A DNA stretch of 64,000 nt, from contig OZ251518.1 in NCBI GenBank assembly GCA_965242965.1, positions 2,880,001 to 2,944,000 on the forward strand, written 5' to 3'. The notes below the pieces were generated by a model. That model had not been told where the DNA came from, ran no database searches, and saw only the letters and a program-made list of their open reading frames with translations. Position numbers and translations under genes: made by a program. Each line of letters starts with the position of its first letter. The first letter of the stretch is position 1. Of this stretch, positions 3,249 to 8,335 are shown one piece after another. The DNA is from Candidatus Poribacteria bacterium (GTDB taxonomy: Bacteria; Poribacteria; WGA-4E; WGA-3G).

Positions 3249-3463
3249 GTGAAGGGGATCGTTTTTAACCGTAGCGCGGGGGCCCTCGGATGCCATACGC
3301 GCATCCGAGAGGGTTTCCCCCGCGATCGCAGCATGGCGAGGGACAGGCCCTCGCCCTACGATGAAAGGGACATTTTTTTCATCGCAGCGCGGGGGCCCTC
3401 GGATGCCACACGCGCATCCGAGCGGGTTTCACCGAAACGTTGAGCGATTTAGGAAACACCCTC
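3249..3463. repeat. REP cluster ending in TIR-like TAGGAAACACCCTC
   Basis: GTAGCGCGGGGGCCCTCGGATGCC... and GGCGAGGGACAGGCCCTCGCCCTAC motifs. Confidence 0.85.
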
Positions 3464-3507
3464 AGTTATTGACAACGTCAACAACAAATATACGTAGGAG
3501 AAACGCA

Positions 3508-4452
3508 TTGCGAACGACAAAAATTCCCGGCGTTAGCAAAGACATATCCCAACTGATTTTAGGAACGATGATGCTATCACCGGTGGCATACGCTCATAGC
3601 ACCGAACTGCTGGACGCATTCTTTGAGGCGGGCGGCAACGCGCTTGACACCGCACACGGCTACGGCGGCGGCACCAGCGAAATGTTAATCGGGCTCTGGA
3701 TGCGGCAACGTGGGAACCGCGAGAACGTCTTTCTCATTGATAAAGGCGGACATCCAAATGGACGCGTGCCACGCCCGCGCCTTTCACCGGAGGAGCTCAA
3801 AAGCGATTTGGATGAAAGTCTCATCCGCCTCCGCACCGATTACATCGATGTCTACATGCTCCATCGCGATGACCCGAGCATCCCTGTTAGCACGGTTATC
3901 GATTACCTGAATCACGAAATCGGTGCCGGGCGCATTCGCGCAATTTCGGCATCGAACTGGGAACCGGAACGCATCCTCGCCGCGAACGATTACGCAGCGG
4001 AAAACGGGTTAAGCGGGTTTGTCTCGTGTAGCAACAACATCAGCCTCGCCGTGCCGATGGAGCCGATGTGGGGCGGCTGCGTCTGCGTTGACGAAAAGGC
4101 GCGCGCATGGCACGAAGAAAGCCAATTCCCGCTGATGCCCTGGTCTTCGCAGGCGAGAGGATTCTTCAGCGGCGCGTTTACGCCTGAAAAACGCGACAAT
4201 CGCGACATGGTGCGAGTCTATTACAACGATGACAACTTTGAGCGGCTCGCCCGCGCAACAAAATTGGGAGAGGAACGAGGCTACTCTGCCATCCAGGTCT
4301 CGTTGGCTTATGCCGTTCAACTGCCATTCCCTATTTTTCCAATCGTCGGCCCGGCGAACTTGGAGGAGATGGCATCCTCGTTAGGGGCATTGTCGCTTGA
4401 ACTCTCGGCAGCGGATATGGCCTGGCTGAACCTTGAAACGGAGAAAAAATGA
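3508..4452 (+). CDS. Aldo/keto reductase
   Basis: LILGT, LDTAHGYG, DYIDVYMLHRDD, GRIRAISASNW; TTG start after AGGAG (the ORF-track N-terminus is REP-derived). Confidence 0.88.
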   Translation: MRTTKIPGVSKDISQLILGTMMLSPVAYAHSTELLDAFFEAGGNALDTAHGYGGGTSEMLIGLWMRQRGNRENVFLIDKGGHPNGRVPRPRLSPEELKSDLDESLIRLRTDYIDVYMLHRDDPSIPVSTVIDYLNHEIGAGRIRAISASNWEPERILAANDYAAENGLSGFVSCSNNISLAVPMEPMWGGCVCVDEKARAWHEESQFPLMPWSSQARGFFSGAFTPEKRDNRDMVRVYYNDDNFERLARATKLGEERGYSAIQVSLAYAVQLPFPIFPIVGPANLEEMASSLGALSLELSAADMAWLNLETEKK

Positions 4453-5507
4453 TGAACACACGTATCCTATTATTAGCACTCCTTTTTATGGCTATACAAC
4501 TGATTGTGCTTCCTTTAGGCTTATCGCAAGATAGCTGAGGCGCGTGAAGCAATCCCGCCATCCCGCAAGGCGGGAGGGATGAAGTCAGGTTGACTTCAGA
4601 GGAGACACAGAAATTTCACGCCGCCTTCAGCATAATGCGATGGTTCGACGCGCAAGGCGGACACCTTGAAACAGAGGGGATTTCCCCAGAGGGTAAGGTT
4701 ATCATCGTGCCTTTGCATCGGCACCATGTCACCTTAAACATTTTCCGCGTTGATGTTGGATTGAAATGCTACTTTAACTCCAACTGGATGCTGGAAGCGA
4801 ACGTCCCTTACGAAGTGAAAGCGCAGGAGGCGACAATCGAGGAACTCGCCGATTCTACGCCTGCCGAAATGGCGGCAATCGTGCGGAATGGTAATAATCA
4901 TCATCGAACCGAAACCTATACCGGGCTCAGGGACACGGATGTGCTGCTCGGGTATAACGCGCAAGGATTGCTGAAAGAGAATGATTTTCTCACGGCGCGC
5001 ATCGGCACAACGGTGCCACTCGGCAAAACTGAGGAAGACCCGTGGCAACTCGGAAAACAGGGGCTTGAGCATCTGCACATTCAATTCGGCACCGGCACCT
5101 TTAATCCCATCGCTGCTCTCTATTATCGCGTGCCGCTCTACGGAAATCTCGCCGCGAATGTGAGCTTGCGCGGGAAGTTGCCGTTCTATGAAAACAGCAA
5201 AACCTATCGCGGTTCAAGGGAACTCACCTATACGGCGGGGTTACACTACCGATTCACCGATTGGCTGTCGGTTCATGGCAGTTATCTGGGGCTTTATCAA
5301 ACCTACGCGTATTGGGCAGGTGAACGGGATATTAACACGGGACTCCATTTCAGCATGGCATCGTTCGGCACCTCTGTTGCAATGCCTTATGATGCCACGC
5401 TGTCCCTGACGATGATGTTGCCGCTCCAACAGGAGACGCTCTACGACGACAGCGATGCATTTGAATTCGGTCCGCTGGTTTCGTTAACGGTGCTTCATGC
5501 GTTCTAA
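4449..5507 (+). CDS. Putative outer-membrane beta-barrel selenoprotein (352 codons) with N-terminal UxxU motif
   Basis: ATG 4449 overlaps the AKR stop (ATGA) and encodes signal peptide MMNTRILLLALLFMAIQLIVLPLGLS-QDS, then TGA(4536)-G-A-TGA(4545), in frame with ORF 4590-5507, which has amphipathic strands and a C-terminal Phe. Confidence 0.75.
4552..4580 (+). promoter_or_regulatory. Candidate bacterial SECIS hairpin
   Basis: ATCCC-GCCA-TCCCGC-AAG-GCGGGA-GGGAT stem-loop starting 5 nt after the second in-frame TGA. Confidence 0.55.
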
Positions 5508-5519
5508 ATTAGTGAGAGA

Positions 5520-5768
5520 GGAGCAGGATTTGGAGCAGGATAGGAGCAGGATTTTCAAGATTTTCAAGATTTCACAGGATTAGGGCTCTGGTGCGTCGGC
5601 GCGGTTGTGGCCTGCCACGGGGTATTCGATGCATCAGCATCTATAATCGTGGTAAATCGTGATAAGAGGGACGATCAGGAAAACCTGCAGAGGGACAATC
5701 AGGAAAACCTGATCGTCTTGACAGGCGTGACCGTCTTGACAGGCGTGACCGTGTAAATCCTGCTTCAG
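5520..5768. repeat. CAGGATT/CAAGATT short-repeat element with inverted GCAGGATT...AATCCTGC ends
   Basis: Shares CAGGATTAGGGCTCTG, CCACGG and GCATCAG segments with 19940-20252. Confidence 0.7.
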
Positions 5769-5776
5769 ACGATTGG

Positions 5777-6470
5777 CATGGCGAGGGAAACCCTCTCGCA
5801 TGCGCGTGTGGCATGCGAGGGCCCTCGCCCTACGGTAAACGGCATGCTTTTTTTAACCGTAGCGCGGGGGCCTGTCCCCCGCGATCACACCCGCGAAAAA
5901 AACCTCTTCAGGTCCTTTAGGTCCTGCATGTCTATAGTATCCCCGACCTCAAAAAACGCTAAGGTCCTTTAGGTCCTTAATCTGCAGCACACGCAATGCA
6001 GCAGAAAAACATTAAGGTCCTAAAGGACCTTGAGGACTTGGAGGTCTGCGTATTCTACAGACATTAAGGTCCTACGGACCTTGAGGAGACTGTAGTTCGG
6101 GAGCGCCTGCTCCCGAAACGGGTCAAGAGCAGGCGCTCTTGACCTACAGAAGGGATGCGCGCACGCGTACCCTATGGCATGGCGAGGGACAGGCCCTCGC
6201 CCTACGGGCAGCGGGGCGTTTTTTTTCACCGCAGCGCGGGGGCCTGTCCCCCGCGATCGTTCGACCTACGCGAAAAACGCACGCCGACAAAGGCCGTTTC
6301 TCGTGCAGATCGCGGCATGGCGAGGGACAGGCCCTCGCCCTACGGGAACGAGGGAACGACCGAGGCATGGCGAGGGACAGGCCCTCGCCCTACGGTGAAA
6401 CGGGAGACGGCCTTGACAACCGCAGCGCGGAGGGCCCTCGCCCTACGGTACCCGAGTATTCTCCCTACAG
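5777..6470. repeat. Large composite REP cluster including the AGGTCC-tac-GGACCT palindromic module and an inverted REP doublet (6091-6148)
   Basis: Many GTAG-hairpins; near-identical module at 52680-53250. Confidence 0.85.
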
Positions 6471-6977
6471 CGCAGAGACTAATCGGATATCAGCTAACCG
6501 CAAGACATAAGCATCTTGACGAAAACCGTAGTAATTCTTCCGGATACGACAGATGCGGAATCCGAATCGCCGATAGAGCGCATGCGCCGCCACATTCGCA
6601 ACATCTACTTCCAAGAAGACCTGGCGGCCACCGCTCGCCGCTATCATTTCCAACGTCGCAGTAAGGATATATTTGGCAATTCCGCGCCGCCGATAGGCAG
6701 CGGCGACAGCGAGATTGTCAAGATGGCCCTCATCGCAGATTATCCGAAACACAACGTATCCCACGATTTGCTCGCTGAGGCGCGCGACGTAAAGATGTTC
6801 GTTCGGCTTCGGTTTGCGGAGTGCTATTCGGAAAAAGGAGGCATTCCACGGAGTGGTGAATGCCTCCTTTTCAATCGCCATGACCTGGGGCAGATCTGCC
6901 AATTGCATTCTCTCAAAAACCAGGTCTGGGAGGGTAGATGCGCTACGCGGAGGGTTATTACCAAACGTTTTTTCCAT
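6465..6977 (-). CDS. rimI: Ribosomal-protein-alanine N-acetyltransferase (GNAT)
   Basis: IEKEAFTTPW, GHLDNLAV..YRRRGIA, FLEVDVANVAAHALY..FGF..RKNYY. Confidence 0.8.
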   Translation of the reverse strand: MEKTFGNNPPRSASTLPDLVFERMQLADLPQVMAIEKEAFTTPWNASFFRIALRKPKPNEHLYVARLSEQIVGYVVFRIICDEGHLDNLAVAAAYRRRGIAKYILTATLEMIAASGGRQVFLEVDVANVAAHALYRRFGFRICRIRKNYYGFRQDAYVLRLADIRLVSAL

Positions 6978-6985
6978 GAGGTGCC

Positions 6986-8335
6986 CTATTTCGCCAAGTC
7001 GCGCGCTTCTCTAAATTTCCGCTTTGCGAATTGCCCCCACTCTTTCAGTTTCTGGTTGCGGAAGCCCGGGTCTTTCCATTCGGTGCTAGCGAACTGCATC
7101 GCCTCTTCTTCGGATAGCGGTATCTGCGTGAGTGCCGCGATGGCTGCCTCGCGCTTCGCAACGTCTCGGCATTCCCCAATTGCCTTCCACGCGTCCACCA
7201 ACTCTTTGTGCGAGTCGATAATCAGCACGCCAAAGAGGTCATTGACGATATCCCACCGAGTCCCGCCTTTGTCCGCGTCGTATTGAAACGGCGTGAAGCC
7301 GAGGGTGAACGGATTTGTGACGATGCACCGGTCACCGAGTTTATCGTAGAGTGCAGGGAGGACGCTGGCACGGTTCAAACCGCCTTCCCACTCCGGTCCT
7401 TCCGGGTCACTGTCAGGCAGCATCCAGAGTTTTTGTCCGCGTTCGGAGAGGACGAATTCCATGAACCTTCGCGCGACTTCCAGATTCGGCGCGCCTTTGA
7501 GGATAGCGATGGAGTCGGGATTGACAACCGTTCCATCACTCGGCATGACGTATTTGATCTTATCCGCGCCGACAACGACAATCTGTCCGTAGGCGTAAAA
7601 ATCGATCGCCATGCCATAAATGACATCACCGGCGACTACGTCTTTCGGAATGGCGTTCGCCCCGGCAGAGAATCTTCGGACGTTTCCGCCGATTTTTGTG
7701 AGGAGCGCGAAGCCGTCTTCCCAACCGTGCGTCTGGAGGATAATTTCATACATCATGTGCGCGGAGCCGCTCTCTCTCGGGTCGGCGGCACCGATGTTCC
7801 TGAGGAGTGCGGTGTCGCCTAAATCCTGCCACGTTTTCGCCGCAGGGAGCCCGAGCAAGGCGCGGAGCTCTTCGTTGAACATGATGCCGAAACTTGATAA
7901 CGCCGCGCCATACCAACGGTATTCGGCATCGTAAACGGGAATACCGTGGAAGGATTGCGGAATCTGTTCTAGCTGCGCTTCCGGGAGTTTATAGGGGCTC
8001 AAGAGGTTTTGCGCGGCGAGGCGCAGGTAACTATCGGTGCCGCCGCCGAAGAACATGTCGATGTCAATGCCTTCGGGGACGCGTTTAAACTCCGAGTCAA
8101 TGAACCGGTAGTTAGAGGAGGTGCCGCCGAGATCTCGCCAATCTAGTTTGACCTCCCTGCCGGTCTGCTCTTGATACCAAGCCGTGAAATTTCTGTCAAA
8201 TTCTGTCTGAATGCCCTCCGAGTGCGGTGAGATGATGACGAGTGCATCTTGCGCAAATAGGGCAGTGGGCAGTGTCATCAGACAGAACACTATTCCGATT
8301 AAGCACTCTAGCGGAGTGCGATGTCTATAGAACAC
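6986..8335 (-). CDS. ABC transporter substrate-binding protein (Fe3+/thiamine-like family)
   Basis: LVIISPH, DMFFGGG, ADPRESGS, AIDFYA, NPDSIAILKGAPN; GTG start after AGGAG (the ORF-track extension is REP sequence). Confidence 0.8.
   Translation of the reverse strand: MFYRHRTPLECLIGIVFCLMTLPTALFAQDALVIISPHSEGIQTEFDRNFTAWYQEQTGREVKLDWRDLGGTSSNYRFIDSEFKRVPEGIDIDMFFGGGTDSYLRLAAQNLLSPYKLPEAQLEQIPQSFHGIPVYDAEYRWYGAALSSFGIMFNEELRALLGLPAAKTWQDLGDTALLRNIGAADPRESGSAHMMYEIILQTHGWEDGFALLTKIGGNVRRFSAGANAIPKDVVAGDVIYGMAIDFYAYGQIVVVGADKIKYVMPSDGTVVNPDSIAILKGAPNLEVARRFMEFVLSERGQKLWMLPDSDPEGPEWEGGLNRASVLPALYDKLGDRCIVTNPFTLGFTPFQYDADKGGTRWDIVNDLFGVLIIDSHKELVDAWKAIGECRDVAKREAAIAALTQIPLSEEEAMQFASTEWKDPGFRNQKLKEWGQFAKRKFREARDLAK

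Follow-up and report, generated by a model that had tools for sequence, protein, structure and literature searches.

The stretch of DNA analysed here, called the window throughout, comprises 64,000 nt of contig OZ251518.1 (2,880,001-2,944,000, forward strand) in assembly GCA_965242965.1 of a Candidatus Poribacteria bacterium, whose genome spans 5.7 Mb in 2 contigs. Within it, an aldo/keto reductase gene is followed directly by a reading frame beginning at ATG 4449-4451, which overlaps the reductase TGA stop (4450-4452) in an ATGA arrangement. From this ATG the frame reads MMNTRILLLALLFMAIQLIVLPLGLSQDS, TGA (4536-4538), Gly, Ala, TGA (4545-4547) and SNPAIPQGG, and joins, unshifted, a 305-residue open reading frame (ORF) that translation table 11 begins at TTG 4590; it closes with ...TVLHAF and TAA 5505-5507. 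A first-pass annotation, made from the sequence by itself, had proposed this start in frame with the TTG 4590 ORF and overlapping the upstream stop, and two TGA codons at CxxC spacing (QDS-TGA-GA-TGA-SNP) leading into a barrel; translation and inspection confirmed both proposals. We interpret 4449-5507 as a single gene predicted to encode an exported outer-membrane β-barrel selenoprotein with two selenocysteine (Sec, U) residues, a reading to which we assign a probability of roughly 0.85 (Table 1). The annotation also expected standard pipelines to truncate the protein, and the best 120 database proteins are all 288-321 residues long, with 82-88% query coverage; two of them are named 'hypothetical protein' from Candidatus Poribacteria. 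Because the public gene calls are truncated, the proteomes of these organisms lack both the export signal and the active motif.

Table 1. Features of the double-Sec barrel gene and its surroundings, in window coordinates (SECIS, selenocysteine insertion sequence; AF2, AlphaFold2; MFE, minimum free energy)
Feature	Coordinates	Strand	Basis and remarks
Aldo/keto reductase gene	3361..4452	+	Pfam PF00248, E 6e-51
Shine-Dalgarno-like GGAG	4440..4443	+	5 nt 5' of ATG 4449; sequence inspection
Full coding sequence	4449..5507	+	352 residues with Sec30 and Sec33, TAA 5505-5507; translation with TGA = U
Signal peptide, residues 1-26	4449..4526	+	Conserved hydrophobic frame; AF2 helix
UGA number 1 (Sec30)	4536..4538	+	Alternates with Cys codons among homologs
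UGA number 2 (Sec33)	4545..4547	+	TGA throughout the Poribacteria and Acidobacteriota copies; replaced by Cys in Bacteroidota and other phyla
Hairpin 1, candidate SECIS	4552..4580	+	MFE fold; pairing on the alignment
Hairpin 2, GAAGUCA-GGU-UGACUUC	4581..4597	+	RNAalifold consensus helix
12-stranded β-barrel, residues 56-352	4614..5504	+	AF2 and Foldseek

The two in-frame UGA codons are conserved well beyond the window. Of 61 genomes searched in all six frames (that of the window plus 60 relatives), 55 gave a match to the barrel gene; by family, it was matched in 36/36, 9/9, 2/8 and 7/7 genomes. Nearly all full-length matches carry two in-frame TGA codons, and a second paralog group carries one. 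At each of 60 homologous loci from the relatives' genomes that were read in detail, the motif [QE][ED][SA]-(U/C)-x-x-U-[ST]-N-P stands after an in-frame ATG and a signal peptide. The second UGA is TGA at all 60 loci; the first is TGA at 47 and a Cys codon (TGT or TGC) at the other 13. One genus (g10) holds both CGAU and UGAU forms, with one and two TGA codons respectively, and the first position therefore switches easily between Sec and Cys. One Poribacteria genome contains two gene copies 2.5 kb apart (L102, at 8018 and 10589), one CAAU and the other UGAU. In another relative (G024, locus L035) a third in-frame TGA replaces a conserved Trp at codon 35 after the motif (MMRUFDAQ as against MMRWFDAQ), perhaps a lesion of this copy or an error.

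More distant relatives extend the alternation to the second position. A profile search of 1.84 billion representatives (E ≤ 0.001) returned 496 relatives. A census of 123 distinct sequences gave 65 UxxU, 43 CxxU, 15 CxxC and no UxxC forms, 108 of them with at least one UGA, and no Poribacteria or Acidobacteriota copy among the 123 has lost the second TGA. C-x-x-C-x-N-P occurs directly after the signal peptide in 14 of the 16 fetched database homologs that reach the N-terminus. Of 215 relatives from a scan of species-representative genomes, 80 were kept, comprising 17 Bacteroidota loci, six non-Poribacteria UxxU loci and 57 loci with Poribacteria-type motifs, mostly titled Candidatus Poribacteria. 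Among these 80, CPAC is found at 16 of the 17 Bacteroidota loci, UPAU or UAAU at four Acidobacteriota loci and two titled 'uncultured bacterium', and the variants UGAU, CGAU, CAAU and CPAU in Poribacteria. No sense codon other than Cys was found at either UGA position among the homologs. Two protein predictions, P0165 and P0166, show W at the TGA positions (DSWGAWSNP and DACSLWSNP), which we read as an artefact, the source's gene caller probably having used a table in which TGA is Trp. The barrel family thus has Sec forms in sponge-symbiont Poribacteria and in Acidobacteriota. Across three phyla Sec and Cys replace each other at both positions, a pattern generally taken as the hallmark of a selenoprotein, and these results therefore support the assignment of both positions as Sec in a genuine selenoprotein.

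The apparatus for Sec insertion is present in the window's genome, as the first-pass annotation had asked to be confirmed. It comprises tRNA-Sec (78 bits; called SeC(tca) by ARAGORN), selA (577 bits), selB (331 bits), which has the tRNA-Sec gene directly beside it on its downstream side (contig C1:179173-181207, minus strand), and selD (358 bits; C1:58854-59813, plus strand; L018), which contains one in-frame TGA of its own; tRNA-Sec, SelA, SelB and SelD all exceed their curated cut-offs. The annotation had named a genome without Sec machinery, homologs with neither Cys nor Sec at the two positions, and non-Cys sense codons there as findings that would speak against it; each was looked for and none was found. 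SelD is a selenoprotein itself (VKCAGUASKLAP), with a hairpin loop 17 nt after its UGA. A formate-dehydrogenase-like molybdopterin enzyme (L168, G000:C1:5501967-5502731, plus strand) likewise has an in-frame TGA, in SRAUHAP, and a hairpin whose loop, GGGCU, begins 18 nt after the UGA.

The RNA around the motif is laid out as UGA, 6 nt, UGA and then two hairpins. The segment 4530-4610 has an MFE of -29.7 kcal/mol (z -2.86), with 1 of 200 shuffled sequences as stable, and its fold includes the hairpin that the annotation had placed just after the second TGA (hairpin 1). The inner stem of hairpin 1 pairs 4561-4566 with 4570-4575 around a loop at 4567-4569; from UGA number 2 to the start of this loop the distance is 19 nt, and from UGA number 1 it is 28 nt. 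The published bacterial SECIS (bSECIS) model sets the loop 16-37 nt from the UGA, with a G among the first two loop positions, and both distances fall inside that range; the loops of the SECIS elements of the same genome (selD, the fdhA-like gene and the HMA genes) lie 17-23 nt after the UGA and begin with G. In most relatives the hairpin 1 loop is GNN. Two registers of hairpin 1 occur, each 72-85% paired on the alignment, because the Asn-Pro and the Ile-Pro codons both pair with the Gly-Gly codons; a description with one simple register was dropped, since the two fit about equally well.

Hairpin 2 covaries among relatives: it emerged from the RNAalifold consensus with 95% pairing and compensatory changes at five of its seven pairs, some of which alter amino acids. 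In the window 40 nt separate UGA number 2 from the start of the hairpin 2 loop, and in some lineages 33-34 nt; Acidobacteriota have a hairpin at the same site with different stem sequences. Mean best-hairpin energies (hairpin 1/hairpin 2) were -7.9/-7.3 kcal/mol in the 65 UxxU forms, -7.5/-7.2 kcal/mol in the 43 CxxU forms and -2.6/-2.2 kcal/mol in the 15 CxxC forms. The all-Cys forms are without stable hairpins, and the structures therefore track Sec and not the protein family as such. The annotation had considered a single SECIS for both UGAs possible; two conserved hairpins are present, either of which could serve either codon. A division of labour that ties hairpin 1 to UGA number 1, with decay of the hairpin after a change of that codon to Cys, found no support, the CxxU value for hairpin 1 being -7.5 kcal/mol as against -7.9 kcal/mol in UxxU forms.

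The protein has the features of an exported outer-membrane barrel. Over the 24 codons that precede the motif, this frame is open and hydrophobic at 56 of the 60 loci and each of the other frames at one of 60, and K or R occurs within the first eight residues at 57. AF2, supplied with 59 aligned sequences (L035, with its third TGA, was omitted), modelled residues 2-24 as a helix. By the small-residue -3/-1 rule, signal peptide cleavage is predicted after GLS, and the mature protein would then start at Q27. The whole model (mean predicted local distance difference test (pLDDT) 82.1, predicted template-modelling (pTM) score 0.79) consists of the signal helix, a tail and 12 strands. Foldseek matched it to FapF (5o67, E 4e-11) and the COG4313 channel (4rl8, E 3e-10), followed by FadL/TodX. 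Both the signal peptide in the ATG 4449 frame and the outer-membrane barrel ending in Phe, as first proposed, are supported by these results.

Residues Q27, U30, U33, N35, P36, P39, H72, H90, H92, H151, H152, R153, H208 and H210 and the sequence QFGxGT are invariant, and the same set is kept in the distant Cys forms. The invariant His sites are found high on strands 1 and 2 and within two long loops. Strand counting from a periplasmic N-terminus would put the histidines in the barrel's extracellular half, with the Sec pair on a periplasmic tail. By sequence the family stands apart from existing models: the best Pfam match of the window protein, PF13505, scores 17.5 bits against a cut-off of 28.7, Pfam gave it no match to PF13557, and no NCBIfam model (release 20.0, E ≤ 0.01) matches it. 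Among the 59 members, sub-threshold matches to PF13505 occur in 28 and to PF13557 (E ≤ 0.05) in 16. The family profile matched no PDB chain by sequence at E ≤ 1, and neither Pfam nor NCBIfam finds an HMA domain in the window protein. Its neighbours in the ESM Atlas are PF13557-type (Phenol_MetA_deg) clusters and one Poribacteria 'hypothetical' cluster.

Gene context in other phyla points to metals. A secreted HMA-thioredoxin gene lies immediately upstream on the same strand at 16 of the 17 Bacteroidota loci and five of the six non-Poribacteria UxxU loci, and its stop often overlaps the start of the barrel gene. MerA is encoded at five of the 17 Bacteroidota loci and MerT-HMA at 12-13 of them; the non-Poribacteria loci also hold ArsR- and CsoR-type regulators, P-type ATPases and DUF3347 proteins. 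One homolog, P0133 (442 residues), is a natural fusion of the barrel with a C-terminal HMA domain (CGMC). The annotation had taken His-rich segments as a hint of a metal-related function; the segments proved invariant, and the function is supported by the context in other phyla and by this one fusion. The HMA-thioredoxin protein (L080-L098, L103, L104, L109; ~700 nt upstream) joins a GMSCxxC HMA domain to a WCGPC thioredoxin domain, and for this Pfam domain pair no family name was encountered. A literature search on mercury and merA in Tenacibaculum discolor returned unrelated items only.

The Poribacteria loci have neighbours of other kinds. An aldo/keto reductase gene precedes the UGAU ortholog in the window, at L129 and L147, and also at L038. 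The CPAU paralog is flanked by a small Cys-pair protein and by YHS/YtkA-like and outer-membrane efflux (OEP) genes, and a CDF transporter gene precedes the barrel gene at two further Poribacteria loci, one of the CGAU and one of the UGAU type. The window's own genome encodes exported multi-HMA proteins with GMTUGAC motifs. One of these (G000:C1:1192431-1193546, minus strand; L162-L166) has a signal peptide and five tandem HMA domains, of which domains 1 and 2 read GMTUGGC and GMTUGAC (UxxC, with in-frame TGA) and a later one GMTCEAC; it is a candidate periplasmic metal-binding selenoprotein. Another HMA domain with GMTUGAC (L167, G000:C1:4287759-4287959, plus strand) stands at the end of a longer open frame, and the further TGAs after its motif resemble real stops. 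Upstream of the CPAU paralog (L113, L134 and L148, ~7380-7820), and likewise upstream of another Poribacteria copy (L099, 7326-7841), lies the gene for a small predicted membrane protein with paired Cys residues (CC motifs), which has no Pfam match.

These features suggest how the protein might be made and what it might do. The ribosome would start at ATG 4449, coupled to the upstream reductase gene, and would make a Sec-translocon signal peptide first; the UGAs at 4536 and 4545 would then both be decoded as Sec by SelB, with Sec-tRNA and the structured RNA directly downstream (4552-4580 and 4581-4597). The mature protein would begin Q-D-S-U-G-A-U-S-N-P and continue through a flexible tail of ~25 residues into a 12-stranded barrel of the FapF/COG4313 kind that ends in Phe. 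An extracellular or lumenal histidine cluster could capture metal, and the N-terminal diselenol (a dithiol in the Cys forms), on a tail that may reach into the barrel from the periplasm, could take the metal or pass it to periplasmic HMA proteins; selenolates would bind soft metals more tightly and remain reactive in the oxidising periplasm. We judge the chances slightly better than even that the barrel conducts a soft metal of the Hg(II)/Cu(I) type across the outer membrane, with the tail as one link in a Cys-pair relay of the MerP/MerT/HMA type. That the metal is specifically Hg is possible and clearly less likely. Equally tentative is the combined proposal of a dedicated outer-membrane gate for Hg(II) or another soft metal, the missing link of the MerP/MerT/MerA relay, whose two UGAs, 9 nt apart, would be decoded with a tandem hairpin pair in a new SECIS arrangement.

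Several observations weigh against parts of this interpretation. The Sec-bearing tail (residues 24-50) has a pLDDT below 50, which leaves its modelled placement relative to the barrel at low confidence. In the window the hairpin 1 loop is AAG, which has no G in its first two positions and departs from the bSECIS rule, and hairpin 1 is missing from the RNAalifold consensus. The hairpin 2 loop (GGU or GUU) obeys that rule, but at 40 nt it lies outside the 16-37 nt range. An Rfam scan of 4400-4700 (E ≤ 10) returned no SECIS family and three chance-level matches. As to a metal function, HMA-thioredoxin, MerA and MerT are encoded within 8 kb of none of the 57 Poribacteria-type loci, and HMA-thioredoxin, MerA, MerT-HMA and HMA queries against the window's own genome gave weak matches to generic thioredoxin, HMA and flavoprotein genes. 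The contextual support comes from other phyla; the window copy follows an aldo/keto reductase gene, and merA and merT are not at its locus.

The strongest rival accepts the selenoprotein and takes the UxxU/CxxC pair to be a redox motif that gates or matures the channel, not a metal ligand. Most catalogued UxxC and CxxU selenoproteins are thought to be redox proteins, according to the portion of a recent review available to us (PMC13188914), and the partner encoded in other phyla has a thioredoxin domain with WCGPC. Against this, the same partner combines its thioredoxin domain with an HMA domain, the surrounding genes form metal-resistance operons, a fusion to HMA exists in one homolog, and the barrel carries seven invariant histidines. 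The two functions are moreover compatible, as the thioredoxin could keep a metal-binding pair reduced. We regard a redox function in place of metal binding as a minority reading, somewhat unlikely on this evidence.

According to a second rival, the barrel is an uptake channel for a hydrophobic organic compound, resembling COG4313 proteins, and its metal-related neighbours are coincidental. The nearest folds, FapF and the COG4313 channel, the weak PF13557 matches in 16 of 59 members, the Phenol_MetA_deg neighbours in the ESM Atlas and the aldo/keto reductase gene beside the window copy all agree with such a function. Chance does not account for an HMA-thioredoxin gene adjacent to the barrel gene at 21 of the 23 non-Poribacteria loci, where the stop and start often overlap, and neither an invariant CxxC/UxxU pair nor His motifs are described for COG4313 in the available part of the channel study (PMC4493636). 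An organic substrate is on balance improbable, and a soft metal is the better candidate.

The remaining rivals deny Sec altogether. Suppression or an altered genetic code might insert Trp, Cys or Gly at the UGAs, and the W residues of P0165 and P0166 would fit a Trp reading had they not the look of TGA = Trp gene calling. As the annotation had argued, TGA is an ordinary stop here: it terminates 11 of the 28 ORFs of at least 300 residues in the window and 356 of the 1391 ORFs of at least 400 residues in contig C1, and in seven of the 60 homologs of the barrel gene itself a genuine TGA stop follows the terminal Phe. TGA is therefore common as a true stop and the code is not changed; in addition the Sec system of the genome is complete, Cys is the residue in every all-sense homolog, and the downstream hairpins are confined to genes of the Sec forms. 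Decoding as another amino acid is thus very improbable, and insertion of Sec remains the preferred reading.

A marginally weaker possibility is that the TGAs are stops, that the 29-codon upstream ORF is separate or meaningless, and that translation of the barrel begins internally, at TTG 4590 or elsewhere. The table 11 listing begins at that TTG, and the lengths of the best 120 database proteins agree with it. Yet without its signal peptide the barrel could not be delivered to the outer membrane, the internal starts vary in position, and eight of the 60 loci lack one in the 25 codons that follow UGA number 2. All 60 loci moreover conserve the upstream frame, the signal peptide and the motif, and the Cys homologs are continuous ORFs across the motif region; translation from an internal start is hardly credible beside a single gene read through both UGAs.

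A pseudogenised N-terminus or a sequencing or assembly error at both TGAs, for which nothing speaks except the possible lesion at L035, is negligible in probability, since more than 100 distinct sequences of two phyla, with protein identities of 35-100%, have the same two codons. Contigs from four runs in four studies were compared, and those of three studies (X1, X2 and X5) span the motif. No RNA data set was listed among the sequencing runs. Strain variants appear in these contigs at 4524, 4532 and 4541, of which the third is synonymous and falls between the UGAs; none of the variants listed for these contigs falls in a UGA codon, with 12 further differences lying outside the list, and the comparison lends weak support to the codons. 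Just downstream of the gene are high-copy repeats (window 5508-5600 and 5800-6700): in run X1 the summed contig depth climbs from ~300 to ~24,000 at 5532-5575, and a 15-nt word of a nearby repeat ('MARDRPSPYG'-type ORFs) has 1042 copies in the 5.7 Mb genome.

Several known systems share features with the protein. COG4313/PF13557 (Pput2725, 4rl8) and FapF (5o65/5o67) share its 12-stranded barrel and its size (Foldseek E 4e-11 to 4e-10, TM 0.52-0.67). Pput2725 has an N-terminal segment before strand 1 that occludes the lumen, as described in the accessible part of its report (PMC4493636), and the window protein likewise has a conserved N-terminal segment before strand 1. Unlike COG4313 proteins, the window family has CxxC/UxxU-x-NP and seven invariant histidines, scores below the Pfam gathering threshold, and is found among metal genes and not genes of aromatic or lipid catabolism. 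The HMA UxxU family NF041115, the MerT/CopZ-type NF045683 and the PF02411 selenoprotein similarly have Sec in place of Cys in a soft-metal CxxC pair, and two Sec three residues apart were already known among them; those proteins have a ferredoxin-like HMA or inner-membrane MerT fold, in contrast to the outer-membrane barrel here. Exported barrel selenoproteins are also known in the TonB-dependent receptor FCYXU (NF049945) and the MtrB/PioB-type GSU2204 (NF041027), which, going by the portion of the review at hand, are much larger, unrelated barrels with one Sec each, not at the mature N-terminus (PMC13188914).

In the mer system, pairs of Cys residues in MerP, MerT, NmerA and MerA form a relay that works by ligand exchange. 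The Cys homologs of the barrel share operons with MerA, MerT-HMA and HMA genes, and a paired Cys or Sec on a flexible tail fits ligand exchange. The generic mer model, by contrast, has no outer-membrane component; the legend of a mer figure gives diffusion across the outer wall, in the part of that article available to us (PMC8261052). In the window's genome, MerA, MerT and HMA-thioredoxin have no recognisable counterpart. Another UxxU diselenide redox motif with CxxC homologs is that of selenoprotein L of aquatic animals, a eukaryotic thioredoxin-fold protein with a SECIS in the 3'-UTR, unrelated in sequence, fold and location.

A review of May 2026 counts 119 prokaryotic selenoprotein families, with UxxU in three of them, in the text at our disposal (PMC13188914). 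The barrel is not among the 119 catalogued families as far as that text extends, and its supplementary files may hold candidates. A search of the literature on Poribacteria selenoproteins gave a match that concerns NiFe hydrogenases, not the barrel, the reviews returned by a search on β-barrel selenoproteins of the outer membrane do not name this family, and the barrel family has no Pfam or NCBIfam (release 20.0) model. Taken together, we conclude that this is a new selenoprotein family whose barrel family is itself undescribed, and not a new kind of system. The protein would be among the few selenoproteins sent to the outer membrane, with two Sec residues three residues apart. Its two Sec-linked hairpins offer a natural case for the decoding of closely spaced UGAs. 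With its Cys relatives paired with HMA-thioredoxin in mer-type operons, the crossing of the outer membrane by Hg(II)-like metals becomes testable.

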